Source of the DNA: a virus
IMG/VR virus record: IMGVR_UViG_3300045988_095676
Span: 26,969 to 90,968 of that record
Reading direction: 5' to 3' (one strand)
DNA: 64,000 nt
The notes below the pieces were generated by a model. It worked only from the letters and a program-made list of their open reading frames with translations, searched no databases and was not told the DNA's origin. Shown one piece after another: positions 2,245 through 62,613 of the stretch. The translations under genes and the position numbers were made by a program. The first letter of the stretch is position 1. Every line of letters begins with the position of its first letter.

Positions 2245-2276
2245 ATATGCAGGCGTCTGTTAAGGCTCCTGCATAT
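2245..2276 (+). promoter_or_regulatory. conserved-loop hairpin A (terminator-like, followed by TTTT)
   Basis: 9-bp stem atatgcagg/cctgcatat. The 14-nt loop cgtctgttaaggct shares the CTGYKAAGR core with hairpins B, D and F. Confidence 0.6.
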
Positions 2277-2282
2277 TTTTAA

Positions 2283-2355
2283 GGTCCTGTAGCTTAGTGG
2301 TGAAAGCAGGCGGCTCATAACCGCAAGATCGTGGGTTCAAATCCCTCTGGGACCA
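2283..2355 (+). tRNA. tRNA-Met (or Ile2), anticodon CAT
   Basis: Hand-folded cloverleaf: acceptor ggtcctg/tgggacc, anticodon loop ctCATaa, T-loop ttcaaat. No encoded CCA. Confidence 0.8.
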
Positions 2356-2356
2356 C

Positions 2357-2427
2357 TGTCCAATGGTGTAGTGGTAGCACAACAGATTTTGGTTCTGTTA
2401 GCGGAGGTTCGAATCCTCCTTGGATAA
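2357..2427 (+). tRNA. tRNA-Gln, anticodon TTG
   Basis: Acceptor tgtccaa/ttggata, anticodon stem acaga/tctgt with loop ttTTGgt, T-arm ggagg-ttcgaat-cctcc. No encoded CCA. Confidence 0.8.
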
Positions 2428-2497
2428 CGGTACATATTTTGTGTAAAGTGTTAATTATCTCGGTGTTTGCGGTGTGTGAACATAGCAAACATTAAAT

Positions 2498-2569
2498 AGC
2501 CTGGTAGTTAAACGGATATAACAAAAGTTTCCTAAACTTTAGTTCCGGGTTCGACTCCCGGTTGGGCTA
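2498..2569 (+). tRNA. tRNA-Arg, anticodon CCT
   Basis: Anticodon stem aaagt/acttt with loop ttCCTaa, T-arm ccggg-ttcgact-cccgg. The acceptor has several G-U pairs, so the ends are +/-1 nt. Confidence 0.7.
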
Positions 2570-2572
2570 CAT

Positions 2573-2644
2573 GGCTTGTTGGATGAGTGGTTTAGTCAGG
2601 GATCTGCAAAATCTCGTAGGGCGGTTCGATTCCGCCACAAGCCT
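2573..2644 (+). tRNA. tRNA-Cys, anticodon GCA
   Basis: Acceptor ggcttgt/acaagcc, anticodon loop ctGCAaa, T-arm ggcgg-ttcgatt-ccgcc. No encoded CCA. Confidence 0.8.
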
Positions 2645-2660
2645 CTAAAAAAGTAAGACA

Positions 2661-3353
2661 ATGAACTACCCAGAGCAACAAATGCTTAAGATCCTTAATA
2701 GGGATCTGCTAAGTAATCCGATGTATGTTATTAACAATCTCCATATATATGATTGGGAATCTGACTTCTTGGCCATAACAAGATCATTGTACGCTTATGA
2801 AGTAGAGGTCAAGATGTCTAAACAAGATTTCTTTAACGACTTCAAAAAGGATAAAAAACATAAGGTTCTTAAAGACGGCATTATTAAAGTAGGTGGTGTC
2901 ATAAGCTATCCTCCAAACTATTTCTACTACGCCTGTCCGCCTAATATGATTGACGTAAATGAAGTTCCGTCTTATGCCGGGCTGATTTATGTCGATGTTA
3001 GTAAAAATAGGAAGAACGTCGTTAAGGTCGCACCTTTAATTCATAGACAGAAGTTTGATGTAGTGGGTAGGAAACTGGTGGATAAGTTTTACTACAATAT
3101 GCTTACTTGGAAGAAAAGAGCTATTTCAAACGTGTATGCTGACCCAGCCAAGGAAAGAGAGAAAGGCGTGCGTGCCGGGGCTGAGGCTGTGAGGAAGTCG
3201 GCCTGGGATGCGTTCAGGGCGCAGTGCCCGCACATTGCTTTCCCCTATGGAAAAGAATTTCCGATGTGTGACGATCACGAACAAGATCATCCCATGAGAG
3301 ACTGCATACTTCAGTGTGAAAAAGGTGGAATATTTAAAAACAGATTGAAATGA
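2661..3353 (+). CDS. hypothetical protein, possible PD-(D/E)XK-fold nuclease (MmcB-like)
   Basis: ORF track. D...ExK-type pattern (ESDFLAIT...YAYEVEVK) near the N-terminus. The functional call is weak. Confidence 0.45.
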   Translation: MNYPEQQMLKILNRDLLSNPMYVINNLHIYDWESDFLAITRSLYAYEVEVKMSKQDFFNDFKKDKKHKVLKDGIIKVGGVISYPPNYFYYACPPNMIDVNEVPSYAGLIYVDVSKNRKNVVKVAPLIHRQKFDVVGRKLVDKFYYNMLTWKKRAISNVYADPAKEREKGVRAGAEAVRKSAWDAFRAQCPHIAFPYGKEFPMCDDHEQDHPMRDCILQCEKGGIFKNRLK

Positions 3354-3619
3354 GCACCCCACGTGAATTAAGTAGAATAGCTAATAGGATAGCCGGTAAG
3401 ATGACTGATGATGGATGGGTTAGCCCCGGTAGAAAGAATCTCGTTTCCGATAAGAAGGTTATGGAGTTAATAGATTCGATTTTTAATGAAATTTGGAGAG
3501 AATTAGATGACGGGAAAAGAGTCCATATCAGGAAACAGATGATTTTCAAAAAGATTTTTGTCAGTAGGCAAAAAGATAAATACTATATACAATGCATAGA
3601 AAAAAGGGACGCCAAATAG
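3350..3619 (+). CDS. hypothetical protein
   Basis: ORF track. ATGA start/stop overlap with the upstream gene. Confidence 0.6.
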   Translation: MSTPRELSRIANRIAGKMTDDGWVSPGRKNLVSDKKVMELIDSIFNEIWRELDDGKRVHIRKQMIFKKIFVSRQKDKYYIQCIEKRDAK

Positions 3620-3636
3620 ACGTCCCTTTTTGTTTT
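3601..3636. terminator. bidirectional terminator between convergent genes
   Basis: Perfect 10-bp stem aaaagggacg/cgtccctttt, 9-nt loop, A-run upstream and T-run downstream. Confidence 0.7.
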
Positions 3637-3666
3637 TTATAAGCAATACAGACGTGAATAATCACA

Positions 3667-4323
3667 TCACTTCATTACTGTCCTTACCAACTTAGAAACA
3701 GCTTGTGTGATAGTCCACCTGATGTTAGCATTAACATTGATAGTCTGAGGAGTACCGTTTGCATCCAAGTTGATTACCTCCTTGTCTATTTCCAAGAACG
3801 GATCACCTGCTGTCTGGGTAATAACCGTATTAGCTGTCTGACCACCGGCGGCCGTCACCTTAAGAGTATTTACCAGATCATTTACATCAGCGTTTTCTGG
3901 AATACCGGAGAATACGATACTGAAAGCAAATCCCCCTGTTGCACCAGGGTCGTCGGCAATAACAGCACCGTTATTGGTAGCCTTGCCTGCTGCCTGATAG
4001 GAGGCTGGTATTTCCAGCGTCAGAGGATGAGACTCGTCTGGAGTTAAGGAGAACGTTAATTTAGTTGAGTTACTTGTGCCGTTGATTGTTACAGTACCAC
4101 CTTCTTTCCCTACAGATGCAGTAGGATCTATTTTTACGAACTCAGCTACCGGAGCTTGGTTTATGGTAGCACTTTTCTTAACATCCCCGGATTCGGCACC
4201 AAATTCTACTTGTAACGTACGCTGTACACGACCTTCGTATTTTTCACCTGATACGGTAACTGCCTGATCACCGTCACCTGATCCCGGATTGAAGGTTACA
4301 AAACCTATTTTCATTTCTGCCAT
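3667..4323 (-). CDS. Ig-like (BACON/Big-like) repeat surface or virion-decoration protein
   Basis: Thr/Gly/Asn-rich beta-strand repeats (GDQAVTVSG, GGTVTINGTSN, GTPQTINVNANIRWTI) resemble Bacteroidetes BACON/Ig modules. It is the only - strand gene in the first 54 kb. Confidence 0.45.
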   Translation of the reverse strand: MAEMKIGFVTFNPGSGDGDQAVTVSGEKYEGRVQRTLQVEFGAESGDVKKSATINQAPVAEFVKIDPTASVGKEGGTVTINGTSNSTKLTFSLTPDESHPLTLEIPASYQAAGKATNNGAVIADDPGATGGFAFSIVFSGIPENADVNDLVNTLKVTAAGGQTANTVITQTAGDPFLEIDKEVINLDANGTPQTINVNANIRWTITQAVSKLVRTVMK

Positions 4324-4439
4324 GATATAAATGATTTTTTTAGTTAATTAATATCTTGACAAATATAGTTTTATTATACGGAAATCCTATTATTGATCTT
4401 CATAAATTAAAACTATCTTTATCCCAAAATAAGACAATT

Positions 4440-5554
4440 ATGAGAAGAAGATTTTTTAACAAAATAGGGGGGGGTATTTACCTACTGATAATTTTATAGT
4501 TTTTGATAAATCTGTATCAGATCCGGCTAATATAACAATAAGCGAAGACAGTGATTTTTTAAATAGGTTGATTACAAGTGGCTTTTATAGAGTTCTTTGC
4601 AAGAGCGCTATGGGAGGAGGAGAGGTTTTTGTATGTAGGTTGAAGGAAGACAACAGCAATTTGTATCTTGATGGTAGTCAGGCTAATCTTACCGGACCAG
4701 AAGGTGATGTGATGGTCGTTTTCTTAGAATTTTGGTATAAATGGTATAAGGTGGATGATAATAGATTTCTTTATCATTTTGCTGATCATGATATTGACGG
4801 CACTTACATCCATGTCCCGGAATCTCTTGTTGGAGCATATAAAGGATATGTATCTTTGAATGGATTATATAGCTGGAGTGGTGTTAGTCCTACAACTTCA
4901 AAATCATTCAACGATTTTGAAGGTTATGCGAAAGCGCGTGGTACCGGGTTTCAGATGATAGATTTTCAACAACATTGCGTGATTGCTATGATGTTGTATG
5001 CTAAGTACAAAACACGTAATATTCAATCTGTATTAGGATTAGGTGGCGCAAATAATAATCCGGCTACAACAACGGGAAGCAGCAACGCAACCGGCGGTGC
5101 GGATACCAAAAACGAAAGTTCAAAGTACGTTTGCGGCTTAGGTTTGGAAGGGGTTTTTGGTGGTATCTATGAATGGGTTGAAGGTGTAGAAATCAACAAC
5201 CGAGTTTGGAAAATCACCGACCCAGACGGATCGACTCGCAATGTGAACGCCGGAACTTCCAATGGCTGGATAACGAATATCGCAGCGGAAAACGGTCCGT
5301 TTTTCGATGTGGTGCCGACAAATGTTGGCGGTAACGATTCCATGCATTATTCAGATTACTATAGTCAGACATCGAGCAACTCCATTGTTTTGGCGCGCTC
5401 CTATAGCGGCTCGGATACGAGTAGTGGCGTGGCGTATGCGTATGCGTCTCGCAACGCGTTGAGCGCGAGTTCGTACTTCGGTTCGCGTCTTGCTTTCCGT
5501 GGAATCATATCCGAGGTGGCTCCAGAGCAGTTCAAAAAATTACCTGTATTATAA
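4440..5554 (+). CDS. fibre/receptor-binding-like protein with C-terminal FGE/C-type-lectin-like fold, interrupted at a G8 run (needs -1 shift)
   Basis: ATG 4440 encodes MRRRFFNKIGGG. The frame of ORF 4568..5554 is open back to 4460 through G8 at 4467-4474. GLGLEGVFGGIYEWVEG and the terminal ...GSRLAFRG resemble the GNVWEW / GFR motifs of FGE-type lectin folds. Confidence 0.5.
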
Positions 5555-5600
5555 TATCATATTTTAATTGTTTTTAAATTGTATTGTTTATATTATTGCG

Positions 5601-5608
5601 TATATTTG
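5601..5608 (+). promoter_or_regulatory. Bacteroidota-type -7 promoter box TATATTTG
   Basis: Matches TAnnTTTG, 26 nt upstream of ATG 5634. Confidence 0.45.
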
Positions 5609-5633
5609 CGATACAATTTAAAAACATTATATC

Positions 5634-6056
5634 ATGAAGATAAACTTTTTAAGCAGTAAAACCTATGTAGGTTCTAAGACAAAAGAAGCTAAAATCAGAA
5701 AGCTTTCTATTAGCAAAGATCGGATTATGACCATATCGGTGGACAATCTGAAATGGATGGGTATCGAAGATGCGGTTATTATTGGTATGGAAGAAGGAGC
5801 TGAGTTTAAAGGGGTGTTGGATTCTAATTTGTATATAGCTCCTTCTAAGGTAGAAGACGAGAGATCGTTTTTATTAAATAAACAAGGTGAGAAATATAGA
5901 CGTATTTACCTCCGTGATGTACTGTCTTCGTTAGGTTGGGATATCGGTGATAATCAGTATGCGGTTTATGATATTGTGAAGGTTAAGGACGAAGATGGTG
6001 TGTTCTGCCTGGTTCCGAGAGAGATTAAGAAAAGTAAGTTTGAGAAAGGAGAATGA
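5634..6056 (+). CDS. hypothetical protein
   Basis: ORF track. Promoter-like box upstream. Confidence 0.65.
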   Translation: MKINFLSSKTYVGSKTKEAKIRKLSISKDRIMTISVDNLKWMGIEDAVIIGMEEGAEFKGVLDSNLYIAPSKVEDERSFLLNKQGEKYRRIYLRDVLSSLGWDIGDNQYAVYDIVKVKDEDGVFCLVPREIKKSKFEKGE

Positions 6057-6057
6057 T

Positions 6058-6936
6058 ATGGTACAAGATATTGATATAAAATCCAAACGAATATTATTGT
6101 TTGATTTTGATGGAACGCTTATAGAAACCGCTTCTGGGAATACGTTCGCTACAGACTTGACAGATATGAGGATTAAGATGGATGTGGTGAATAAGGCTCT
6201 TGACCTCATGCAGGAGAACGGTGTTAAGGTATTTGCTATCGTAAGCAATCAAGGAGGAGTAGAAGCTGGGTTTGTTTCTGGAGCTGATATTGAAGCTAAG
6301 ATAGAATACGTACTGAGGTCCGTACATGATCTGGCGGTAAAGAGAGGTATAAGAGGCGTCCTATATGAAAAAAGGTTGTGTTATTCAAATGACGAACAAA
6401 ATCCGATGAGGAAGCCTAATACGGGCATGATTGATGATATTCTTATGAAGTGTAAAGACACGGTAATGCGCGGTATGAACTTCAGTCAACTTAAGGGATG
6501 TTCGTTGATGGTCGGGGACGCCAGTGGTCTGCCAGGGCAGTTCTCTGATTCGGATAAGGTATGTGCCTATAATTCCGGTATTAACTATATGGATATTACT
6601 ACATTTTTGGATAAAGATCTTGATTTAGAATATGTATTGTCCAAAGAACATACAAGTGAAGGAATAGTTATTCTAAACAACGATCATATATATATCCTTG
6701 AAAATCCATATGGGGTTGGTCTTAATATAAAAATCACTTTAAAAGATTTTTATAAGATTGAAACCGATGATGGAAAAACTGCAACCGTAGATGATGTGCT
6801 GAATATAAGGATTGATAAAGATCAGAATTTTAATTCATATAGTGATGTTATAAAAATAGAAACATTAAAAGACGGTAGTATCAAATATACAAGCTTATAT
6901 CATGAAAGTAAAGAAAACAGCGATAGTTTATCATAA
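6058..6936 (+). CDS. HAD-superfamily phosphatase (polynucleotide 3'-phosphatase / GmhB-like) with unknown C-terminal domain
   Basis: HAD motif I LLFDFDGTLIE, motif II VSNQGG, Lys motif MRKPNTGM, motif IV MVGDASG. ATG 6058 lies 1 nt after the upstream stop. No kinase P-loop. Confidence 0.7.
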   Translation: MVQDIDIKSKRILLFDFDGTLIETASGNTFATDLTDMRIKMDVVNKALDLMQENGVKVFAIVSNQGGVEAGFVSGADIEAKIEYVLRSVHDLAVKRGIRGVLYEKRLCYSNDEQNPMRKPNTGMIDDILMKCKDTVMRGMNFSQLKGCSLMVGDASGLPGQFSDSDKVCAYNSGINYMDITTFLDKDLDLEYVLSKEHTSEGIVILNNDHIYILENPYGVGLNIKITLKDFYKIETDDGKTATVDDVLNIRIDKDQNFNSYSDVIKIETLKDGSIKYTSLYHESKENSDSLS

Positions 6937-7858
6937 ATCGGATTTAGATGGCGTTGTATCGGCAGCCATCGCAACCATGTACGAAAACAGTAAAAACAAG
7001 GATGTTGTTTATATCCCGTATTCGTATGAAGATGATGTTAAGAAAGTTGTTGACCAAGTACGTGACTTAGATGTTGTTTATGTTCTTGACGTGTCTTTTG
7101 GAGCCGATTCTAAAACTGTTTTCAAAAAGTGGCTTGATGAAGGGAAGAGCCTGATGTGGATAGATCACCACAAGGGAATTATTGAGGACAGTAAGACATG
7201 GGGGTTCGTAGTTCCAGGGTTGAGGAGGGTCGGTGTCGGTGCGTGCGCTCTGGCTTCGGACCTGCTTATGGGGAAGGTGCCGGCGATCGTCCGATGCCTG
7301 TCAGACTACGATGTGTGGAATAAAGAATCTGGCTTAGGCTGGGATACGGTAGTAGCTGTCCAGTATGCCTTGAGATCAAAAATAAGACTCAATGTATTGA
7401 TTGCATTGTCGTATTTATATGATCACTTTAAAGAAAACATGAAAGACAATGAAATTGATCTTATTTTTTATGATCTTGCTAAAGAAGGACGTGCTATAAT
7501 TAATTACATGGCTTGTAAAAACGAAGATGAGGTAAGTAGGTACTCGTTCGAAGCTTACGTCGACGAGGTTAAGGTTATGGCTATGAATACCGCTGAATTT
7601 AGCTCTAAGGTATTTGATTCTCTTACACCGGACTGGTTAGACGGTAGAAAAATTAAAGCCCTGATGCCATTTTGTATCATGCCATGTGGAAAAGTTAGGT
7701 TCTCTCTTTACGAATGCGTAGAAGACAGCGTAGATTGCTGTGAGGTAAGTAAGAGATTCGGTGGTGGAGGACATGCTGGTGCTGCTGGATTCGTTATAGA
7801 CGTATCAAGTGACCAGTTTAAGGACTTCCTTGAAAGTAAAAAACTTTTATCGAAATGA
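6902..7858 (+). CDS. DHH/DHHA1-family phosphoesterase (NrnA/RecJ-like)
   Basis: Motifs HKSDLDGV, DVSF, WIDHHKG (DHH) and GGGGHAGAAGF (DHHA1 GGGH). Confidence 0.8.
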   Translation: MKVKKTAIVYHKSDLDGVVSAAIATMYENSKNKDVVYIPYSYEDDVKKVVDQVRDLDVVYVLDVSFGADSKTVFKKWLDEGKSLMWIDHHKGIIEDSKTWGFVVPGLRRVGVGACALASDLLMGKVPAIVRCLSDYDVWNKESGLGWDTVVAVQYALRSKIRLNVLIALSYLYDHFKENMKDNEIDLIFYDLAKEGRAIINYMACKNEDEVSRYSFEAYVDEVKVMAMNTAEFSSKVFDSLTPDWLDGRKIKALMPFCIMPCGKVRFSLYECVEDSVDCCEVSKRFGGGGHAGAAGFVIDVSSDQFKDFLESKKLLSK

Positions 7859-8226: not shown

Positions 8227-8267
8227 ACTAATATGGGAAAGTAAATAATTACCGTCGTAAAATAAGT

Positions 8268-8300
8268 ATGGGGAACTTTGGATAGGTTCCCCATATTTTT
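8268..8300 (+). terminator. intrinsic terminator
   Basis: 9-bp stem atggggaac/gttccccat, loop tttggatag, then ATTTTT. Confidence 0.7.
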
Positions 8301-8380
8301 ATGTGATGAGGGAGAGGAATGGTGAAATGTTTATGTGATGGGAGAGATATGAGAAAGAGGTTTATGTGATGGGAGAGAGG
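8299..8380 (+). repeat. three direct repeats TTATGTGATGrGrGAGAG (iteron-like)
   Basis: Copies at 8299-8317, 8331-8347 and 8362-8380, with period 31-32 bp. Confidence 0.8.
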
Positions 8381-8408
8381 GGGTACCTATCACGAACCTC
8401 CCGCCCCC

Positions 8409-8463
8409 GAAACGCGTTTTCTCCCCCGCACCCCCCTTCGCTGGAAAACCGGAAACGCGTTTT
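8409..8463. repeat. two copies of palindromic GAAACGCGTTTT embedded in C-runs
   Basis: Copies at 8409-8420 and 8452-8463. C-runs at 8400-02, 8404-08, 8423-27 and 8431-36. Confidence 0.8.
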
Positions 8464-8474
8464 ACCTCAAACCC

Positions 8475-8520
8475 ACAAACTCTCTGATTATCAATCACTT
8501 ATTTAAATTATTGATAATCA
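8475..8520. repeat. 11-bp perfect inverted repeat TGATTATCAAT / ATTGATAATCA
   Basis: Arms at 8475-8485 and 8510-8520. Related TGATWATCA copies near 8540 and 8623. Confidence 0.8.
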
Positions 8521-8705
8521 ATGTGTTATTATAACATATTGATTATAAGCCACTTAAATAAGCATATATCCTACATATTAATGTACGCGTATAACACTGC
8601 TCTCGTTCGTTTTATAACTTTCTGATAATCAGATAATATAATCGAAATTAATACAAATTAACAAAAAAAAGATATCATATATATTTGTAGTATTGATAAA
8701 TGTCG

Positions 8706-8713
8706 TATATTTG
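8706..8713 (+). promoter_or_regulatory. -7 promoter box TATATTTG (second copy at 8680-8687)
   Basis: Matches TAnnTTTG. It is followed by the hairpin cgtgatc-gagaga-gatcacg. Confidence 0.4.
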
Positions 8714-8858
8714 CGTCGTGATCGAGAGAGATCACGAGTTAACATAGTGAACCTATATAGTGTACCCGTTGGGCTAACTATATATGTATCTGTAATTGCC
8801 TGCGTTGTGGGTCATTAATTTGAATATCATTTGTTTAACAATTAAAATATATTGGGAT

Positions 8859-9398
8859 ATGATTACGAAAAAAAATGTAAACAAACTACAGAATGCCGTT
8901 ATCAAAGAAAATGCTGCAAATTTGGTAGGTGCTGTTAAACTGTACAACGCTCTATTTGCTAATGGAGCTGATCTAAAGGCTATTTGCAAGGCTTTGGAAA
9001 TACCGGCAGAATACGCCGTAAAGGTTGCAGCCCTCGCCAAGGATAAAAAACGCCTGGTAGCCGTGTGTAGCCAAATGTTACCGAAAGTTGATAATACCTT
9101 TGTTAAATTTGCTTTATACTCTAAAGTATATAAGGATACCAATGCGGACAAAGAAAAAGGAATTGAAGCTAAAACGGCTGATTGGTGCGCTGAGAATGTG
9201 GTTTACGGTAGCGAATATAAAGCATTTGGTTTTACTACTGCCGAATCATTGGAGAATAAAAAAAGTACTAAATGGTTGGTAAAAGAAACCGACGAGTACA
9301 AATCTACTTATGTGGCTGTTAAGATCAAATCTTATTCTATTCGCACTGTGGCAAAGTGTGTAAGTGAATACCTCGCACATGAAAGCAACCAGCAGTAA
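8859..9398 (+). CDS. hypothetical protein
   Basis: ATG 8859 inside ORF 8796..9398, preceded by the 19-nt element TGTTTAACAATTAAAATAT. Isolated between two long non-coding regions. Confidence 0.6.
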   Translation: MITKKNVNKLQNAVIKENAANLVGAVKLYNALFANGADLKAICKALEIPAEYAVKVAALAKDKKRLVAVCSQMLPKVDNTFVKFALYSKVYKDTNADKEKGIEAKTADWCAENVVYGSEYKAFGFTTAESLENKKSTKWLVKETDEYKSTYVAVKIKSYSIRTVAKCVSEYLAHESNQQ

Positions 9399-9960
9399 CA
9401 AGGCACGGAGAGCGCCGTTAAGCTCTCCAAAGGTTTGACGCGTACCGTTAAACGCGTCTGTACGCCGTTGTCAGTGGGTGCACGTCCCGCGTATGCTTTA
9501 GACTGAAGCTGACAAAACAGAGAGTTATTTTACATATTGGAGATAGATATACCGGTATCGAGGCCGTTGGCAATTAAAAATACGGTATTGCTGCATGAAC
9601 TGCACTAAATAAGTGTGGTTTATGTTAGGTATGTTAGTACAGTTTGGAAAACATACCGTTGTACGCGGTTTATCTCCAGACCGAAACGTGTCTTACTTGC
9701 CTACACGTAAAATAGGACAAGGCTGTAGATTAAATTACAGGGTATAAACATGTAGCCTACCATGTAGGAGCGTGATATATCAAAGCGCAAGGACACAATC
9801 GCCTTTATTTGTGGCTAAGTTGTGTAGCAGACGGAAAATATAATAACAACATAGTACGAGCCTGTACGCAAGAACTACGTACTAATTACGGGCTGTTGGT
9901 TGTAGCATAAAATCTCTATAGGATAGGAATGCGTGTCCGGTTCGATTCCGGAGCAACCTC
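9399..9960 (+). ncRNA. candidate large structured non-coding RNA ending in a tRNA/tmRNA-like T-arm
   Basis: No ORF. Many local hairpins, five CCGTTR motifs, an 8-bp long-range pairing (9538-45 with 9671-78) and a 3' end tccgg-ttcgatt-ccgga-gcaacc. Confidence 0.35.
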
Positions 9961-9983
9961 TAAATTATAAATAATATAATAGC

Positions 9984-10154
9984 ATGGAAAAGAAAGCAAT
10001 GATCAACGCTTTAATTGAAGCGTTCAATAAATCTAAAAACAGTTGCGTAAAAATAACATTGCGTAACTATATCGAGACGGTGGAAACATTGAGCGAAAGT
10101 GAGTACAAAGAGGCGGAAGGTTTCTATATCGAAGCACTTAACCGCTGGAGTTAA
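9984..10154 (+). CDS. hypothetical protein (56 aa, below the ORF-track cutoff)
   Basis: Hand-translated ATG..TAA ORF MEKKAMINALIEAF...NRWS. Confidence 0.45.
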   Translation: MEKKAMINALIEAFNKSKNSCVKITLRNYIETVETLSESEYKEAEGFYIEALNRWS

Positions 10155-10176
10155 TCATAATTAAAGCATAAAGAAA

Positions 10177-10383
10177 ATGGAAAGGAAATTTAAATCTTAT
10201 ATGGTAGACGTCCGCGGTCTGTCCAGGAAAGAAGCTAAAGAAAAGCGGAAAAGAGCGTATCGGGAATTTATGTTGTATCGTGATCTCAAAGAAGCGTATC
10301 ATGCCGATACAGGAAAGGACAAATGCAAACGTAAAGTCCATACATCACGAACATACGTGAAAGAAAACATAAACAGTATTTAA
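10177..10383 (+). CDS. small basic hypothetical protein
   Basis: ORF track, followed directly by a strong terminator. Confidence 0.55.
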   Translation: MERKFKSYMVDVRGLSRKEAKEKRKRAYREFMLYRDLKEAYHADTGKDKCKRKVHTSRTYVKENINSI

Positions 10384-10391
10384 ATAGGGAT

Positions 10392-10426
10392 AGGGTTGTT
10401 CCGAATATCGGAGCAGCCCTATTTTT
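10392..10426 (+). terminator. intrinsic terminator
   Basis: 12-bp stem agggttgttccg/cggagcagccct (two G-T pairs), 5-nt loop, then ATTTTT. Confidence 0.75.
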
Positions 10427-10488
10427 GTATCCTACTCTTTCTATTTACGGGTAGGATATTCTGAGAGTGAACGGCGGATGTAAGCTAT

Positions 10489-10581
10489 ATTGGTCTAAAA
10501 CGAAACTAAAATATGAGAGTTTGGATACAATGCCGGTATTTTGTCTATATCATGTCGTTGAAATTGGTCTAAAACGAAACT
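10489..10581 (+). repeat. 19-bp perfect direct repeat ATTGGTCTAAAACGAAACT, two copies
   Basis: Copies at 10489-10507 and 10563-10581 (74-bp period). Confidence 0.85.
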
Positions 10582-10583
10582 TT

Positions 10584-10629
10584 AGGCGGTTTTCTGACCC
10601 AAAATAGGGCGTCGGATGCCGCCTTTTTC
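10584..10629 (+). terminator. terminator-like hairpin with internal sub-hairpin
   Basis: aggcgg...ccgcct stem enclosing ccc-aaaata-ggg, followed by TTTTC. Confidence 0.5.
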
Positions 10630-10754
10630 GTCTCTATGGATTGAAAATTAGGCTTATTGTACTTTTCTTAAAAATAAGGTATGCTTGATTATCAATTAGT
10701 TAGGTTTTATGATACCCGTATTTTCGGACACACTTATTGTAAATTTTTTATTTT

Positions 10755-10922
10755 ATGTGGTGGTTTTTATTAGTAGCTGACCTGTATTTTTTATCGGTTG
10801 GAGTAAGGTCTATGTTGGAGTACGGACCGGATCAGTATAATATTGTAATGGTCTTTTGCTTTTCTTTATTGGCTTTGATTATAGGCTTAAATATCTATCT
10901 TGATAGGAGGAGCAGGCGGTAG
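10755..10922 (+). CDS. small membrane protein (55 aa, two hydrophobic helices)
   Basis: Hand-translated MWWFLLVADLYFL...LALIIGLNIYLDRRSRR, TAG stop. Below the ORF-track cutoff. Confidence 0.4.
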   Translation: MWWFLLVADLYFLSVGVRSMLEYGPDQYNIVMVFCFSLLALIIGLNIYLDRRSRR

Positions 10923-11110
10923 GGCGTGGGCTGAAGGCTCTCTATTCTCTCTATGGAATGATATTATCTCTAAATACCCCATACTTCATGCCAGAGTATA
11001 AGCTTGTAGCGCTCTCCGTATGCCGGTAGTGAGGCCGAGAGCGCAGGTTCTATGCGGAAAGCCGGAGGATTAGCCGGGGTTGGAGAGGGGGAGAGGGAGG
11101 GCACTCCCTA

Positions 11111-11250
11111 CCAACAAAATTCAATAGATAAGCGTTTTAAAACAGTGTTCTGTAGATCATTTCCACAAAATTCAATATGATAAGGGTTTAAAACAGCATT
11201 ATATAGGTTCCTTCCAACAGATTAAGGGTTGAGGACTGCATTATGTGAGT
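11111..11250 (+). repeat. three imperfect tandem repeats (core ATWAAGSGTTTAAAACAG..TAG), period about 52 then 42 bp
   Basis: Cores start at 11128, 11180 and 11222. The first two units also share ACAAAATTCAATA. Confidence 0.7.
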
Positions 11251-11285
11251 ATTTTTTTTTAAGCGGGATGTTTAACAATTAAAAT

Positions 11286-11555
11286 ATGGATGGTATGAAC
11301 GTATATGACTTTGCGCCTGACTTAGATTTGAGTAAGGAGGTAGAAGGTTCTATTTTCGGGGTAAAAGGAATAGAAGGCAGTGATGGAATAGTATATGCTA
11401 AGGTAGTTAGCTGTGTAGACGTTAAGGATTACAGTTGTGATAGGTGTATTTTTTATGATTGTTATAAGGATAAATGTTTATTATCGCGTAGTGATAGTTG
11501 TATAGATGGAGATTGGATTTGTAGGTACGAACAGGCTGCCATAGAGGGGGAGTAG
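11286..11555 (+). CDS. Cys-rich hypothetical protein
   Basis: ORF track, preceded by the same 19-nt element as the 8859 gene. Confidence 0.65.
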   Translation: MDGMNVYDFAPDLDLSKEVEGSIFGVKGIEGSDGIVYAKVVSCVDVKDYSCDRCIFYDCYKDKCLLSRSDSCIDGDWICRYEQAAIEGE

Positions 11556-11663
11556 GCGGCGCCTTGGGCTAAGGCCTGCGGTTGTAGGTGGAACGTAGGT
11601 CGGAGCAGAGCCGGAACAGTTTATTGTGGAACTAAAAAAAAATAAAAAGGAGGAGATAGCGAT

Positions 11664-11744
11664 ATGAAAAAGGCATTTAAGATATTTTCTATTATGTTTG
11701 TCATAGAAATAGTGCTGATAGCTATTTTAGATGCTATGGCGTAA
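11664..11744 (+). CDS. 26-aa hydrophobic peptide
   Basis: MKKAFKIFSIMFVIEIVLIAILDAMA, preceded by an unusually strong AAAGGAGGAG Shine-Dalgarno-like sequence. Confidence 0.4.
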   Translation: MKKAFKIFSIMFVIEIVLIAILDAMA

Positions 11745-11787
11745 GTGAGAAAAATTTCTTCATTAATTTTCTTATGCTTTAGACAGA

Positions 11788-11815
11788 ATGCTCCCATCTG
11801 CGAAGATCGGAGCAT
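11788..11815 (+). promoter_or_regulatory. conserved-loop hairpin B
   Basis: 7-bp stem atgctcc/ggagcat, 14-nt loop catctgcgaagatc. Confidence 0.6.
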
Positions 11816-11823
11816 TTGCTTTA

Positions 11824-11868
11824 TGGGATTCATGGTGCAGCAAGTCGGTTCGATTCCGGCGATCTCAC
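11824..11868 (+). ncRNA. tRNA-like acceptor/T-arm minihelix (not a full cloverleaf)
   Basis: Acceptor tgggatt/gatctca (7 bp including G3:U70), 13-nt linker, T-arm gtcgg-ttcgatt-ccggc. No D or anticodon arm. Confidence 0.4.
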
Positions 11869-11891
11869 ACAACATTAAAATAGGGAAGAAC

Positions 11892-12296
11892 ATGTTAAAA
11901 GAAGAATTTGAAGAACTGATTAAAAGGGAGGTAAACGAAAATCAGTATAAAAACATAGAAACGGCATACGAGGCTTTGCCGGAGTATATGGATAAGATGT
12001 ATTTAGCAAGTGCTATTTCAAATGATATTGGGAAAGCTATTAATGTCTTATCGTTTTTAGGATCGCATATAAGCGAGTTAATGGGTTCGATAATAATCGA
12101 AAGGCAAAAGGTGGAATCATGTGCCTATGATTTAATAAACAAATCGCATGAGGAGGATGACTTGAAAGCAAGAGAGATTGCCGTGCGATTAATAGGAGAG
12201 AGGGAAACAGTGGCATACACAGTAAAAGAAGGGCTGCCATTGTGGGAACAAGATAAAAAGTTTATAATAGAATTAATAAAGGAGGATAGAAAATGA
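11892..12296 (+). CDS. hypothetical protein
   Basis: ATG 11892 inside ORF 11745..12296. The upstream part of that ORF overlaps the RNA elements. Confidence 0.65.
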   Translation: MLKEEFEELIKREVNENQYKNIETAYEALPEYMDKMYLASAISNDIGKAINVLSFLGSHISELMGSIIIERQKVESCAYDLINKSHEEDDLKAREIAVRLIGERETVAYTVKEGLPLWEQDKKFIIELIKEDRK

Positions 12297-12622
12297 AAGA
12301 CGGTATTGTATTGCATCCAGAGCATGGGTTGAATCCATCCATAGAACTATGCATAGTATGCGGTGAAGAGATGGGGATTGCTTTATTAGGGAATAACATC
12401 AAAGGGCAGGCGCCGCATCATATATGCACGGGAGAAATATGTGACAATTGCAAAAAGATAATAGATGACGGAGGTTGTTTTATTATCGAAGTTGAGGATG
12501 GATCAGATCAAAAGAATCCGTATCGTACAGGGAGATATTGCGCGATAAAGAAAGAAGCAGCAAAGAAAATACTTGGACAGGAGCATAGTATTGTGTACAT
12601 GGAAAAGTCTGCGTACAGTTAA
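12293..12622 (+). CDS. zinc-ribbon hypothetical protein
   Basis: ORF track, CIVCG...CDNC cysteine pairs, ATGA overlap. Confidence 0.65.
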   Translation: MKDGIVLHPEHGLNPSIELCIVCGEEMGIALLGNNIKGQAPHHICTGEICDNCKKIIDDGGCFIIEVEDGSDQKNPYRTGRYCAIKKEAAKKILGQEHSIVYMEKSAYS

Positions 12623-12648
12623 ATAATACCACAAAAATAAAGAAAGAT

Positions 12649-12963
12649 ATGTTTGCAAAAGAAGAGCGATTATTCATATGGAAAAAGGTATATGAGATGA
12701 TTGATAGGTTAGAGGATGGGGAATACATATGTGTTGCGTTAAGAAATGTAGTGTTTATGTATTTCAAAACACATAAAAATATCTATGAGTTTCGTTCAGA
12801 CGAAATGGTGAGAATATATTTCCCGGAATTGGAAGAGAAGATAAGTATGGCCACAGAACCAGAGGAAACAAGAACGTTTTATGGGTGGTTTGGTTGTCTT
12901 AGTCCAGAAACGAAGGAGGTAAGGCTGAATATTGTGAAAGATATTATAAAAGAATTAGAATAG
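12649..12963 (+). CDS. hypothetical protein
   Basis: ORF track. Confidence 0.6.
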   Translation: MFAKEERLFIWKKVYEMIDRLEDGEYICVALRNVVFMYFKTHKNIYEFRSDEMVRIYFPELEEKISMATEPEETRTFYGWFGCLSPETKEVRLNIVKDIIKELE

Positions 12964-13009
12964 TATTTTTGTTAATCTATTTTATTCATCAAATTAAGTT
13001 TTGGGTTTT

Positions 13010-13039
13010 GGCATGTCGGTTCGTGAGGATAGGCATGCC
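13010..13039 (+). promoter_or_regulatory. conserved-loop hairpin C
   Basis: 6-bp stem ggcatg/catgcc. The 18-nt loop tcggttcgtgaggatagg matches the hairpin E loop at 14 of 18 positions. Confidence 0.6.
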
Positions 13040-13056
13040 TATTTCTGCATCATAGA

Positions 13057-13117
13057 GGGGATGACGCGGCGTGCCGGTGCGTATGTGCCGGTCCTGGTTC
13101 GATTCTGGGCATCTCAC
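13057..13117 (+). ncRNA. tRNA-like acceptor/T-arm element (not a full cloverleaf)
   Basis: ggggatg/catctca pairing (6 bp including G3:U70), 29-nt GC-rich linker with a gtgccggt direct repeat, T-arm cctgg-ttcgatt-ctggg. Confidence 0.35.
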
Positions 13118-13138
13118 AAACAATAAAACAAAAAAGTT

Positions 13139-13372
13139 ATGAGAATATATAAGAATGATATTATAAAGGCGTCAGCAATAAGCACCGGAGCCGACAGAGG
13201 CGTGTTGCTGTGTTCAATAACAGATTCAGGCTTTACGTCTATAGCGGGCGTAATATCGGCTGTTAAGGATAGGTTACCAAACGAAGATCACAAGAAGATG
13301 GTTTTTGAAATCTTGAATGATACGAAAAAAGAGTACGGAAGATATAATAATTGCGGAACAAAAGTATTGTAA
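13139..13372 (+). CDS. hypothetical protein
   Basis: ORF track. Confidence 0.6.
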   Translation: MRIYKNDIIKASAISTGADRGVLLCSITDSGFTSIAGVISAVKDRLPNEDHKKMVFEILNDTKKEYGRYNNCGTKVL

Positions 13373-13426
13373 TAAAGAGTAGAAAACAATATGTTTATGT
13401 AATATTAGTTTTTTCATTTTTATTGA

Positions 13427-13460
13427 AAGGAGCGCCGGCCTGTGAAGGTATGCGCTCTTT
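13427..13460 (+). promoter_or_regulatory. conserved-loop hairpin D
   Basis: 9-bp stem aaggagcgc/gcgctcttt (one G-T pair), 16-nt loop cggcctgtgaaggtat. Confidence 0.6.
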
Positions 13461-13491
13461 GTATTTGTATAATGCATAAAACAATAATAAT

Positions 13492-13746
13492 ATGACAGAG
13501 AATAGTATATACGTAAATATCGTACCTGTAAAGAATGGTATGAAACGTGTTGTGGTATCATATTACCATTATTCACGCAAGGAGAAAGATCGCATGAGTT
13601 CCCAAACGGATTACGTTTGGGAAACAAAGAATGAAGAAATGTTTAAATACTTTGAGGCCAGGAGGACAAAAGTATTTTATAGTCAGATTCGTGCCATGTG
13701 TAGATTCTATGGCAAGAAAAATGTACGTAAATACAAAAAGTTATGA
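13492..13746 (+). CDS. hypothetical protein
   Basis: ORF track. Confidence 0.6.
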   Translation: MTENSIYVNIVPVKNGMKRVVVSYYHYSRKEKDRMSSQTDYVWETKNEEMFKYFEARRTKVFYSQIRAMCRFYGKKNVRKYKKL

Positions 13747-14552
13747 TATTAAAAACGACAACCAACGAGTTTTGTTTCATTAACGTAAGTTTCTACGAAA
13801 CAATAGCAGATCCTCGTCATTTCTTTGAACAGGATTATGAAGAGATGCCAGAATATGAGGAGGAATCGGATTTTGATTTTGATTCTTATTACAATAAGTT
13901 TATTCCTTTTGTACAGGAATGGGCGAATGAGGTAAGTGAACGCCTTTACGGATATGGCGTGAATAGTATAAAGGTAACATCGGTCGGATATCCGAAAGAA
14001 TATAATTATGGTACTGATTGGATGAACGTAGAGGTAGAGTTTTGTGATGAATGGAGGCAAAAGATGTTATCTAACATTAGTAAGATTGTCAATGATGATA
14101 AATGCAAGAAGTATGCGGAGACTAATTACCGGTCGGTATCAGGATACATCTTTTTAGGACCTGAAGATTTAAAGGAATTTGAAAAGGAAATAATAGAAAG
14201 AAAGTCGGATTCCGGATATGATGTAACAATATTATTAAATATGTATCTAACTTTGGCTTTTGTAAAAGAATTTGGATTTAAAGCCGGAGAAGCATGGAGT
14301 GAAATAACAGAATATGCTTACGGATGTTTATCGTATTCCGATTTTGCAACAACAGAGATGCTTATACCGGAAGGTTCGGAGCATTTATTCAAAGACATTT
14401 ACACGGCAAAGGCCGACGAATTATATCATCATGTCCTGGATAAATTCGGATGGGCGTGGCGTGATCCGAAATATAAGTCAGAAACAGAATTATGCGCGAT
14501 GCTAAAGTGGGCAAAAGAAAAAGGCTTGACCATTGAAGAGTTAAGTATTTAA
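13743..14552 (+). CDS. acidic hypothetical protein
   Basis: ORF track, ATGA overlap. Confidence 0.7.
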   Translation: MILKTTTNEFCFINVSFYETIADPRHFFEQDYEEMPEYEEESDFDFDSYYNKFIPFVQEWANEVSERLYGYGVNSIKVTSVGYPKEYNYGTDWMNVEVEFCDEWRQKMLSNISKIVNDDKCKKYAETNYRSVSGYIFLGPEDLKEFEKEIIERKSDSGYDVTILLNMYLTLAFVKEFGFKAGEAWSEITEYAYGCLSYSDFATTEMLIPEGSEHLFKDIYTAKADELYHHVLDKFGWAWRDPKYKSETELCAMLKWAKEKGLTIEELSI

Positions 14553-14565
14553 TTGTTAAACATAA

Positions 14566-14597
14566 GGCAGTAGTGGTGCGTGAGTATAGGTGCTGCC
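14566..14597 (+). promoter_or_regulatory. conserved-loop hairpin E
   Basis: 7-bp stem ggcagta/tgctgcc, 18-nt loop gtggtgcgtgagtatagg. Confidence 0.6.
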
Positions 14598-14615
14598 GTT
14601 AAAATATTTTATAAG

Positions 14616-14864
14616 ATGAAAAAAGAAGAGATTCAAACTATTTTATACACAATCAAAGAAGGAGACAGTATTAAAATCAAAGTACAAGACAAAAGTGAAG
14701 AGATAAGACTGCGGGATCATGTAAGAAGAGTACAGAAATACGGATACAGGTTTTGTTTGTCTCATTTACATGATGGAATTTTCTATCTGGAGAAGTTGAA
14801 AGAAGGGGATAAGGATAAATACTATAGAGTAATAAACAGAGGAAATGGAAAGACCGGAGTATAA
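14616..14864 (+). CDS. hypothetical protein
   Basis: ATG 14616 inside ORF 14580..14864, downstream of hairpin E. Confidence 0.55.
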   Translation: MKKEEIQTILYTIKEGDSIKIKVQDKSEEIRLRDHVRRVQKYGYRFCLSHLHDGIFYLEKLKEGDKDKYYRVINRGNGKTGV

Positions 14865-15138
14865 TAAGCTACGCAAAATGGCTAAGACTACTCCAGGTCT
14901 GATAGTGGACGAGGTGCAAAACATGATGCGTGTATCGCTATACGATAATGGGGAACTTAAGAAGGTGGTAGTAGTAATGAAATGCGATTCTTTTTTACAG
15001 TCAAAAAGTAACATAGAAAAGATAATGTTATTATCATCTTCTATAGAAGATAGAAAAAACAAAGAAAAAAATAAAACAAAATCAGAAAATGAACAGAATA
15101 ACAAAAATAAGAGAAGAAATAGGAGGAAAACAGGTTGA
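14845..15138 (+). CDS. hypothetical protein with Lys/Asn/Arg-rich tail
   Basis: ORF track. Confidence 0.5.
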   Translation: MERPEYNKLRKMAKTTPGLIVDEVQNMMRVSLYDNGELKKVVVVMKCDSFLQSKSNIEKIMLLSSSIEDRKNKEKNKTKSENEQNNKNKRRNRRKTG

Positions 15139-15472
15139 TTTGACCTTTTACGGGCGCTTTTGCAGCCTTATCGAAGGTGATAGGAAGATAATACTAAGGG
15201 CAATAAAAAACGGTCGTAAAAAAGGCGTAATCGGGGCCATTCAGCCTGGGAGACATGACAGAATTTGGACCACATGGTCTATTGCTTTTGATGATCTGAG
15301 GGTAGGGGATACGGTAGAGTTCAGTACATCTGGAAAATACAATCCCGGATTTCATGCTACGGAAAAGTATGTAGGGTGTGTAGAATGGATAAGGGGATCG
15401 GAATGTGCGATAAAAACCGGCAATGGAATAGCAGTAGTATTAATTAAACATGTAGAAAGGGTGGTAAAATAA
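15089..15472 (+). CDS. hypothetical protein
   Basis: ORF track. Confidence 0.6.
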   Translation: MNRITKIREEIGGKQVDLTFYGRFCSLIEGDRKIILRAIKNGRKKGVIGAIQPGRHDRIWTTWSIAFDDLRVGDTVEFSTSGKYNPGFHATEKYVGCVEWIRGSECAIKTGNGIAVVLIKHVERVVK

Positions 15473-15753
15473 TGGATTTAAGGATGTTTATAGACCTATT
15501 TCAGGAGATTGAGGTAGAGAACTTGTTTAAAGCGTTAGATTTATGTATGGAATATGTAAGATTAGATTTACATGTGTTTAATGTAGGAGCTTATGTAACG
15601 TGTTCATACAGTAATGATCTTGAATCTCTTTCACAGGCAGAAGGTTGTAATGTGAATATGATAATAGAGGTACCCCACTTATTCGAAGCATTCATGGAAT
15701 ATGCTTCACCGGAAATGAAGTTGTATTATGAAAAACTAACAGAGATAGTATAA
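15472..15753 (+). CDS. hypothetical protein
   Basis: ORF track. Confidence 0.6.
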   Translation: MDLRMFIDLFQEIEVENLFKALDLCMEYVRLDLHVFNVGAYVTCSYSNDLESLSQAEGCNVNMIIEVPHLFEAFMEYASPEMKLYYEKLTEIV

Positions 15754-15754
15754 T

Positions 15755-16228
15755 ATGAAAGAAGAAGTAGAACGGATAAAGAAGTTGGTAGGCATAGATC
15801 ATAACAGATGGGAGCAACCTTGTACATGTGATAAATGCAAGAACATGTGTAAGGTTCCTTGTATTGGTACGCCAAAAGACATAGAGGCTATCATAGATGC
15901 CGGATACGCTGACAGGTTAAAAGAAACAATGTGGATGGTAGGGTATCTTGCAGTGAAAGAAAAACCAATAGCGATGATCCAGCCAACAGAGAAAGACGGG
16001 TGGTGCGCATTCCGCCGGCCGGACGGTCTATGCGAGCTGCATGACCGTGGACTAAAGCCGACTGAAGGAGTTCTGGCTTCTTGTAAGGTGGTTAAAGAAG
16101 ACAATGTCCCAACATATGAAACGTCTGTACTTAGAGCAGTAGCTCATGAGTGGGTTAAGGTAGAGAACTTCGCAACTATAATGAGGGTCGTTTTTAAATT
16201 TTTGCATGAAAATGAACGTAGAAAATAA
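15755..16228 (+). CDS. Cys-rich metal-binding protein (YkgJ/CxxCxxCC-like)
   Basis: CTCDKCKNMCKVPC plus DGWCAF...DGLCELH resemble the zinc/iron-chelating UPF0153 pattern. Confidence 0.45.
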   Translation: MKEEVERIKKLVGIDHNRWEQPCTCDKCKNMCKVPCIGTPKDIEAIIDAGYADRLKETMWMVGYLAVKEKPIAMIQPTEKDGWCAFRRPDGLCELHDRGLKPTEGVLASCKVVKEDNVPTYETSVLRAVAHEWVKVENFATIMRVVFKFLHENERRK

Positions 16229-16616
16229 ATTAGATAAAGTGGTTAATATCCTAAAAGAAAAAGGATTTGTAGTATATAGAAAGGGCGGGAAGGAGCCAGG
16301 TGTGTTTTACGCTAAAGAAGGTGACAGCCGGATAGGATTCGTTTATCCCAACAACGGATATATATATGATAGAATAAAAATGTGGTCTTTTTCAAGGATA
16401 TATAAACCACATAAGAAAACCGGGTCTTCGTGTTTAATGAGCGTCAGCGACGAATTTACGATAGAGAATGCGATTAAGAACATAGAGGATAGACTGTGGG
16501 TGAATTATATAAAAGATGGTAACAGAAAACGACCAGAAGAATATAAAAATATAAGAGAATTTGTTGGTAGCTTCACTAAATTCTACAGCTCTGTAGAATT
16601 AGTTGAGGTTAAGTAG
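16206..16616 (+). CDS. hypothetical protein
   Basis: ORF track. Confidence 0.6.
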   Translation: MKMNVENKLDKVVNILKEKGFVVYRKGGKEPGVFYAKEGDSRIGFVYPNNGYIYDRIKMWSFSRIYKPHKKTGSSCLMSVSDEFTIENAIKNIEDRLWVNYIKDGNRKRPEEYKNIREFVGSFTKFYSSVELVEVK

Positions 16617-16637
16617 TTTTCCATGTAAGTTAGTTAC

Positions 16638-16672
16638 CGGCACTGGTCTGCGAAGATAGGCGCCGTTTTTTT
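16638..16672 (+). terminator. conserved-loop hairpin F with T7 run (terminator)
   Basis: Stem cggc(a)c / g(c)gccg. The 14-nt loop ggtctgcgaagata shares TCTGCGAAGAT with hairpin B. Followed by TTTTTTT. Confidence 0.6.
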
Positions 16673-16693
16673 ATTCAAGGAAGGAGGACAAAG

Positions 16694-62584: not shown

Positions 62585-62613
62585 GTTAAAAATCAAGCAT
62601 ATCATAGAAAATA

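Follow-up and report, generated by a model that had tools for sequence, protein, structure and literature searches.

Rho-independent terminators are G+C-rich stem-loops at gene ends that are co-oriented with transcription, and a GNRA cap is common among them. The RNase III R-sites of phage T7 and the Bs-RNase III sites of phage SP82 are families of intergenic early-operon hairpins with conserved internal features and covarying stems, at which cleavage leaves a protective 3′ hairpin. The lambda boxB and the iron-responsive element (IRE) combine a GNRA-type loop closed by U-A with a conserved top and a free lower stem, while in the MALAT1 ENE (element for nuclear expression)–mascRNA pair and in mitochondrial tRNA punctuation a structured 3′-end stabilizer lies just upstream of a tRNA-like RNase P substrate. 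Theta ribozymes, found in gut phages, are minimal ribozymes of the hepatitis delta virus (HDV) type, with a nested double pseudoknot and a catalytic C, located at the 3′ end of a tRNA (Kienbeck et al. 2024, PMC10879173). Here, we analyze a family of intergenic hairpins in a stretch of 64,000 nt (the window) from the IMG/VR record IMGVR_UViG_3300045988_095676, positions 26,969–90,968, and compare it with these systems; hairpin coordinates are window positions. The window is ~91–94% identical to csAssE-Sib (OR575929.1), a 151-kb human-gut phage. The hairpins belong to a single sequence-specific type of RNA stem-loop that many gut phages carry, mainly those infecting Bacteroidota, and they constitute a candidate new RNA motif family.

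Each element is a hairpin of 12–15 bp. The lower helix (6–9 bp) is variable and can have any sequence, and above it follow a U·G or C-G pair, a purine·A mismatch (rarely C·C or C·U), a G·U pair, three base pairs, and a GNRA tetraloop, which gives the apex consensus Y-R-G-NNN-GNRA-NNN-U-A-R. The 1×1 mismatch occupies the fifth position from the loop, being G·A in hairpins C (13009–13040), D (13428–13459), E (14566–14597), and F (16636–16667), C·C in B (11786–11817), and C·U in A (2245–2276), all on the + strand. The fourth position from the loop is G·U, but A-U in B and G-C in A, and the three pairs next to the tetraloop are Watson–Crick or wobble. These six hairpins had been listed in a first-pass annotation of the window, and all of them are present within 2 nt of the positions given there; the loop similarities it reported for B and F, C and E, and A and D are likewise correct. 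Its description of the conserved part as a loop of 14–18 nt does not hold, as RNAfold folds this part further into a structured apical module, composed of the GNRA tetraloop and a non-Watson–Crick triple. The common architecture is obtained for all six hairpins at −13 to −19 kcal/mol, and the range for the nine copies described below is −13 to −20 kcal/mol.

Two of the systems mentioned above differ from the family in their dimensions. RNase III sites of the T7 and SP82 type measure ~20 bp or longer and carry internal loops at the cleavage site, and the 12–15-bp stems with a tetraloop appear too short for classical sites of this kind. The boxB hairpin of lambda has a 5-bp stem and a pentaloop, lies beside boxA, and occurs once or twice per genome, whereas the present family places a tetraloop and a non-Watson–Crick triple on a 12–15-bp stem, reaches up to seven copies per 2 kb, and has no boxA. 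A lambda-type nut site was rejected as an identity in view of the tetraloop, the long stem, the many copies per region, and the lack of a conserved linear flank.

An unbiased scan of the window, with a GNNA loop, 4 bp, and at least six of seven lower pairs as criteria, returned exactly nine hairpins, compared with ~2.2 in shuffled sequence. The position-5 mismatch was not demanded by the scan and is nevertheless present in 9/9. A covariance model built from the nine copies (R1) recovers them in the window with E = 7e-8 to 7e-5; its next-best match, at E = 0.04, is the reverse strand of hairpin B, and there is no tenth copy at E < 1e-4. The copies beyond the first six are A2 (2462–2493, +), G (55961–55992, −), and H (62613–62644, −). 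All six + strand copies of the first-pass annotation are thus real, and its count falls short of the window total, which includes two on the minus strand.

The hairpin structure is real and under selection. Over ~780 strain-contig copies, the stem substitutions are overwhelmingly pair-preserving, and double compensations are seen among strains of hairpin B, from A-U to G-C in 46 copies and from U-A to C-G in 8. In none of these copies has the position-5 mismatch turned into a pair. In 29 independent copies, 97.5% of the cells are paired and double changes occur at 10 of the 11 pairs, a result reached by 0/500 shuffles and with no slid register coming close. The G·U pair (27/29), the R·A mismatch, the U·G or C-G pair beneath it, and the G and A of the tetraloop are near-invariant in the same set. 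Covarying stems with conserved loops had been read in the first pass as a sign of a recognized RNA (or single-stranded DNA) element, and the two sets of copies bear out covariation with a conserved apical part, as expected for a recognized RNA element, showing that the hairpins are not a chance set. The window carries a few less typical alleles: the GUUA loop of hairpin A is a rare form (76 of 85 strain copies have GUGA), and the position-4 pair of hairpin B, A-U in the window, is G·U in about two thirds of the strain copies.

The element acts on the transcribed strand, because the conserved U·G and G·U pairs are A·C mismatches on the other strand and because all nine window copies are co-oriented with their flanking genes. 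The genes of the window run on the + strand to ~54.5 kb and on the − strand beyond, and hairpins G and H, both on the minus strand, sit among minus-strand genes; the orientation of the hairpins therefore follows transcription. It is for these reasons that we regard a single-stranded DNA element, that is, a recombination, transposition, or priming signal of the attC, REP (repetitive extragenic palindrome), or IS200/IS605-end type, as highly improbable. Such an element would fit the imperfect palindromes with a fixed mismatch, the TnpB genes of csAssE-Sib, and the presence of copies at the junctions of variable cassettes, where the downstream tRNA or open reading frame (ORF) varies between strains. 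However, the orientation switches with transcription at 54.5 kb, the conserved wobble pairs favor RNA, the lower stems differ between copies of one genome, unlike those of REP or IS ends, and no associated recombinase is seen. REP and IS200/IS605 ends were also rejected as direct identities, given the unrelated lower stems of the copies and the absence of an annotated TnpA in csAssE-Sib.

The family is linked to tRNAs. In the 1.83 Mb of hairpin-bearing loci that were fetched, a strict definition of the element yields 265 copies, 145 of them distinct, with 23 apical variants of which two are dominant. An ARAGORN tRNA start lies within −3 to +15 nt on the same strand for 89 of the 265 copies (34%) and for 31 of the 145 distinct ones, compared with 0.7% of random positions. 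The spacing between the hairpin and the tRNA +1 position has a mode of 2–4 nt and a range of −3 to +11. Same-strand clusters of 3–7 copies are frequent in non-coding, tRNA-rich regions of these loci; at one of them (L298), five of the seven hairpins stand 1–5 nt before tRNAs.

In the window, a tRNA gene or a tRNA-like element begins 5–20 nt after four of the nine copies (A, A2, B, and C). The four tRNA genes (2283–2645, +) form two dimers, Met-Gln and Arg-Cys, each with a family hairpin 5–6 nt upstream. Between hairpin A, with its GUUA loop and C·U mismatch, and the following tRNA-Met there are 6 nt, and a promoter-like site, TTTG-N20-TAACTTTG, precedes the hairpin by ~47 nt. A2, with the apex CGGUGU-GUGA-ACAUAG, is separated from the preceding tRNA-Gln by 34 nt and from the following tRNA-Arg by 5 nt. 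Hairpin B (loop GCGA) is located 6–7 nt upstream of a tRNA-like minihelix, TLS1 (11824–11868, +), which consists of a 7-bp acceptor-like stem and the T-arm GTCGG-TTCGATT-CCGGC and has no anticodon arm. Hairpin C, with the apex CGGUUC-GUGA-GGAUAG, is 16–20 nt upstream of a related element, TLS2 (13057–13117, +), made of a 7-bp acceptor-like stem, an extra hairpin, and a T-arm. The gap between hairpin and tRNA is too small to hold a promoter, and the hairpins are therefore co-transcribed with the tRNAs or tRNA-like elements. The first-pass annotation had placed the hairpins just downstream of genes; they are indeed intergenic, and co-oriented with genes, and it missed the defining site directly 5′ of tRNA and tRNA-like genes.

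TLS1 and TLS2 each contain a canonical T-arm (GGTTCGATTC) and end in a common 3′ ATCTCAC. The acceptor-like stem and T-arm are their only predicted parts in common with a tRNA, as opposed to a full cloverleaf with D, anticodon, and T arms, and neither element is called by ARAGORN or by the Rfam tRNA model. Across strains, changes in the T-stem proceed mostly through wobble intermediates, and in some strains the extra arm of TLS2 is deleted or TLS1 and TLS2 are recombined. The pairs B + TLS1 and C + TLS2, taken as hairpin plus putative RNase P substrate, recall MALAT1–mascRNA and mitochondrial punctuation; those systems are eukaryotic or organellar, and the MALAT1 stabilizer is a triple helix.

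The likeness to theta ribozymes lies in the hosts and in the setting, since both occur in gut phages of Bacteroidota or Bacillota, either adjacent to tRNAs or isolated in sense-oriented non-coding regions, and both point to cis-encoded processing of tRNAs or transcripts. The present family, in contrast, is found 5′ of the tRNA as a simple hairpin, with neither HDV-like features nor an Rfam match. A theta or HDV-like ribozyme is ruled out by the simple-hairpin covariation, the position on the 5′ side of the tRNA, and the spacer length, the 34 nt between tRNA-Gln and A2 being too short for such a ribozyme on manual inspection; HDV-family models of Rfam gave no match even at E ≤ 10. A hammerhead-like reading of CUGxGA...GAA was also tried, and its core positions do not match.

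The tight spacing to the tRNA +1 position, together with the occurrence of one hairpin per tRNA or tRNA dimer, could suggest an insulator of pre-tRNA folding or an RNase P helper, in which a stable 5′ hairpin would keep the AU-rich leader off the tRNA and could position or modulate RNase P. Theta ribozymes provide a precedent for gut-phage cis elements in the maturation of tRNA ends (PMC10879173). We consider this quite unlikely, as two thirds to four fifths of the copies are not beside a tRNA, most tRNAs of the same arrays have no hairpin (phage crAss001 has one for its ~23–25 tRNAs), and the conserved apex is left unexplained.

The five other window copies separate protein-coding genes. Hairpin D (apex CGGCCU-GUGA-AGGUAU, with a modest U-rich tail) lies between two small ORFs, 55 nt past a stop codon and 32 nt before an ATG, and E (apex UGGUGC-GUGA-GUAUAG) follows a stop codon by 13 nt and precedes the next ATG by 19 nt. 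The apex of F, UGGUCU-GCGA-AGAUAG, is followed by U7. Hairpins G (CAGUCA-GAGA-UGAUAG) and H (CAGACU-GAGA-AGUUAG) both have U-rich tails followed by downstream TAnnTTTG promoter-like boxes. They bracket, as a single unit, a 2140-aa ORF (56131–62553, −) that is the orthologue of a csAssE-Sib "structural protein", G being downstream of it and H upstream, 30 nt before the TACCTTTG promoter-like box of this ORF. With a U-tract defined as five or more U among the eight nucleotides that follow the stem, such a tract is present in F, G, and H, partial in A, and missing from A2 and E. It had been stated in the first pass that only A and F have clear U-tracts; F does, A is partial, and G and H have to be added. 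Its judgment that plain intrinsic terminators are unlikely stands, given that such a tract is found in only 11 of 38 lineages.

Terminator-like copies do exist, namely F, G, and H and copies in bacterial assemblies with U5–U7 tails. This raises the alternative that the family consists of ordinary Rho-independent terminators whose shared apex is merely a favored fast-folding cap, with no specific recognition. The intergenic, gene-co-oriented positions, the stabilities of −13 to −20 kcal/mol, the tails just mentioned, several of them in Bacteroidota assemblies, and the TAnnTTTG boxes after H and G all speak for this explanation. It is nonetheless unlikely in our judgment. Most lineages lack a U-tract, many copies stand 1–5 nt before a tRNA within an array, with no space for a new promoter, and the destabilizing purine·A mismatch between wobble pairs is kept and never repaired, an obligatory feature that sets the family apart from terminators. 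Moreover, identical apices of 16–18 nt on dozens of unrelated stems argue for sequence-specific selection, and the window contains plain perfect-stem terminators of another type (e.g., 3601–3631, 10385–10427, and 54514–54556). A generic terminator scan did not pick up the family, because of the stem mismatches. Perfect-stem hairpins with an A-tract and a U-tract are found at 3601–3631 and 54514–54556, between convergent genes, and at 63034–63070, among minus-strand genes; these three look like bidirectional terminators of a class distinct from the family.

A conserved apex on a free lower stem is typical of protein-binding hairpins, and the family could in that case control read-through of RNA polymerase into the downstream tRNA or gene by way of a phage or host factor bound to the apex, in the manner of boxB/N or LoaP antitermination or of factor-dependent attenuation. 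Exact TAnnTTTG boxes precede A by 47 nt, B by 85 nt, and C by 37 nt, and F, with its U7 tract, sits inside an operon-like ORF array with no room for a downstream promoter, both of which would suit such a role. The exact search gave boxes upstream of these three hairpins only, at variable distances, and near-matches occur everywhere in this AT-rich DNA; no conserved upstream motif was found across lineages. A density of up to seven copies per 2 kb, with one for each tRNA, does not resemble that of nut-type sites, which occur once per operon, and neither a boxA-like partner nor a conserved flanking motif is seen. A shared candidate factor was not found in the fetched loci, which are short, and the element occurs in unrelated Bacteroidota phages and in an Oscillospiraceae contig, so that the factor would have to be host-universal or often transferred. 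Read-through control therefore appears improbable to us.

The element is not specific to the phage of the window. csAssE-Sib has orthologues of all nine window hairpins, and outside the window-equivalent region it carries three more hairpins of the family architecture, of which the model detects two, including a weaker one whose loop has 5 nt, and a relaxed scan alone detects the third. One copy outside the window, X1 (L004 35998–36029, −, at ~57.0 kb of csAssE-Sib), lacks a U-tract and runs antisense to the annotated genes on either side of it, the sole exception to co-orientation that was seen. In the Bacteroides phage crAss001, R1 gives one strong match (MH675552 1878–1909), which precedes tRNA-Glu by 5 nt. 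Its apex reads TGGTCTGTGAAGATAGG, exactly as in the GUGA form of the F apex carried by many strains, while the lower stem differs.

The F apex occurs in 67 stretches of IMG/VR, on contigs of 4–350 kb, every one of them a hairpin and with many distinct complementary lower stems. In GTDB it has 21 matches, nearly all of them hairpins, of which ~14 are in Bacteroidota assemblies and several have U5–U7 tails; the motif is ~30-fold rarer per base there than in viral contigs, an order-of-magnitude figure that assumes ~60 Gb for IMG/VR. The C apex, CGGTTCGTGAGRATAG, is found in at least 120 viral contigs, excluding csAssE's own copy, and among the matches listed there are 80 distinct 32-mers, 67 of them with complementary lower stems. 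The apex is thus conserved on unrelated lower stems, with family apices on dozens of them in at least 190 viral contigs. The first-pass expectation of further copies and covariation in relatives, for which a covariance model had been proposed as the check, is borne out by csAssE-Sib, crAss001, and unrelated phages.

The hairpin + tRNA-like module also appears outside Bacteroidota-associated sequences, in the Oscillospiraceae assembly CAVAHD010000003.1, where each of two family hairpins (L285 4100–4640, −) precedes a tRNA-like gene that contains a long internal insertion. Other phages have non-coding arrays of ~1–2 kb that mix family hairpins and tRNAs (L300 9640–10920, −; L298 8380–10700, +); some of these tRNAs apparently have long insertions or introns, and a small GGAC-GAAA-GUCC hairpin is repeated in the arrays. 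Searches with Rfam 15, at gathering thresholds over the whole window and at E ≤ 10 over the regions 2100–2700 and 11600–13500 and the crAss001 spacer, gave tRNAs and otherwise only chance-level matches to terminator hairpins of Bacteroides sRNAs (BTnc231 and GibS). A description of the motif was found neither in Rfam 15 nor in the literature searched, which covered Bacteroides terminators, csAssE, YrlA, phage tRNA leaders, the crAss001 transcriptome, and tRNA-array hairpins.

The presence of an Rsr gene in csAssE-Sib and of a TROVE protein (gp96) in crAss001 brings to mind a Ro60 (Rsr)-binding module, with hairpin and tRNA-like element forming a Y-RNA-like particle. The apex UGGUC...GAAG.UAG presumably resembles the 5′ strands of metazoan Y RNAs. 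In bacterial Y RNAs, a tRNA-like domain is joined to a Ro-binding stem, with GNCGAAN0-1G as the Rsr motif (PMC4201824); the loops of B and F read UGCGAAG. However, the C of "CGAA" is not conserved, F alternating between GCGA and GUGA and other copies having GAGA, and the Rfam YrlA model has no match to the hairpins. In addition, a separate YrlA-like candidate adjoins rsr in csAssE-Sib, and no TROVE gene is seen near the hairpin clusters of other phages, for which only short loci were at hand. We thus find the Ro60 module very unlikely, and the identification of the hairpins as the Ro-binding module of YrlA or Y RNA was rejected because the motif is not conserved across the GCGA, GUGA, and GAGA loops, YrlA gives no Rfam match, and rsr lies outside the window. 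The YrlA-like candidate (L003 1601–1705, at ~72.6 kb of csAssE-Sib and outside the window) is a sub-threshold match, with 28.5 bits against a gathering threshold of 69 and E = 0.002, and is followed on the same strand by tRNA-Tyr, tRNA-Lys, and the Ro60-related (Rsr) gene. At L003 ~1590–1900, the YrlA-like element, tRNA-Tyr, and tRNA-Lys each follow a conserved leader, (A/G)TGGTGA(T/G)GG...ACTTCG(A/G), that is unlike the GNRA hairpin family.

Taken together, the data require an element that works at the RNA level, with a reader of the apex that is either conserved across hosts or often shared among phages; recognition by a factor is implied by the invariant non-Watson–Crick apex. The reading that we favor, while giving it somewhat less than an even chance, is that of a cis-acting RNA 3′-end or processing element, in which the upstream RNA would have the hairpin as its 3′ terminus. 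The motif is transcribed in the sense of the flanking genes and marks the boundaries of transcript units, most characteristically 1–11 nt upstream of a tRNA or tRNA-like gene. At copies with a U-tract (F, G, and H), the end would be produced by intrinsic termination. At A, A2, B, and C, which precede a tRNA or tRNA-like element, RNase P would cut at the tRNA 5′ end and leave an upstream RNA ending in the hairpin with a tail of at most 11 nt, too short for 3′ exonucleases, a scheme that would resemble tRNA punctuation or the MALAT1/mascRNA arrangement. The apex would be recognized by a putative protein or RNase. Cleavage by RNase P, protection of the 3′ end, and a factor that recognizes the apex are all inferred here. 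As for the first-pass annotation, its observation is confirmed and its interpretation as a recognized element is partly supported, with operator, processing site, and factor-dependent terminator as possible functions.

Several points weigh against a 3′-end or processing element. The 11 of 38 lineages with a clear U-tract are a minority, and some copies, such as E and X1 of csAssE-Sib, have neither a U-tract nor a downstream tRNA. In arrays, a protective hairpin after the preceding tRNA would hinder its exonucleolytic 3′ trimming, and endonucleolytic maturation by RNase Z or a ribozyme would therefore be needed. The exact TAnnTTTG boxes upstream of A, B, and C mean that these hairpins could be 5′-leader elements and not 3′ ends, and the closeness to the downstream gene, a bias in the window, is not general, there being no bias toward the upstream or downstream ORF across the 145 distinct copies. 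Finally, no candidate binding protein was identified in the fetched loci, all of them short, in which TROVE, CCA-enzyme, and polynucleotide kinase (PNK) genes are not enriched: a tblastn search of 1.8 Mb of these short hairpin-bearing loci with two TROVE proteins, a CCA/PAP enzyme, a PNK, and a phosphodiesterase gave one TROVE match, in a crAss001-like locus, and one PNK match. It is also possible, though we hold it doubtful, that the family is a new class of cis-acting phage RNA, a "tRNA-leader hairpin". Through its U·G / R·A / G·U + GNRA apex, a dedicated factor of host or phage would then govern the maturation, timing, or protection of phage tRNAs, of tRNA-like RNAs, and of neighboring transcripts.

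Concerning the phage itself, more than 160 contigs of IMG/VR are near-identical to the window, and csAssE-Sib is the only close relative among the INPHARED genomes, all others being below 30% protein identity. The host is probably a member of the Bacteroidota, because BACON-type proteins are annotated in csAssE-Sib and TTTG...TAnnTTTG promoter-like sites are frequent before genes. Shine–Dalgarno use is rare in Bacteroidota, and the strong Shine–Dalgarno-like sequence at 16668–16693 (AAGGAAGGAGGA), before the ORF at 16694, would be unusual in such a host. Another region of the window, 8227–11285 (~3 kb), has few plausible ORFs and many strong hairpins, for example at 8264–8298, 8357–8400, 9589–9631, 10385–10427, 10584–10624, and 11009–11044. 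Both the start and the finish of the linear csAssE-Sib record fall at window position ~10466, and the stretch may be a terminus, an origin, or a non-coding RNA region.

The maturation and expression of the large tRNA arrays of Bacteroidota gut phages are poorly understood, and to our knowledge the theta ribozyme at tRNA 3′ ends is the only dedicated cis element described so far for such arrays. If the hairpins do prove to be tRNA-leader elements, they would be the 5′-side counterpart of theta ribozymes. The hairpin signature marks non-coding boundaries and helps annotators to find unannotated tRNA-like RNAs, such as TLS1 and TLS2. The hairpin is present in hundreds of phage genomes, including that of the culturable crAss001, and often stands 1–5 nt before tRNAs, which makes what reads the apex, and its role in tRNA and early-gene expression, amenable to experimental test.

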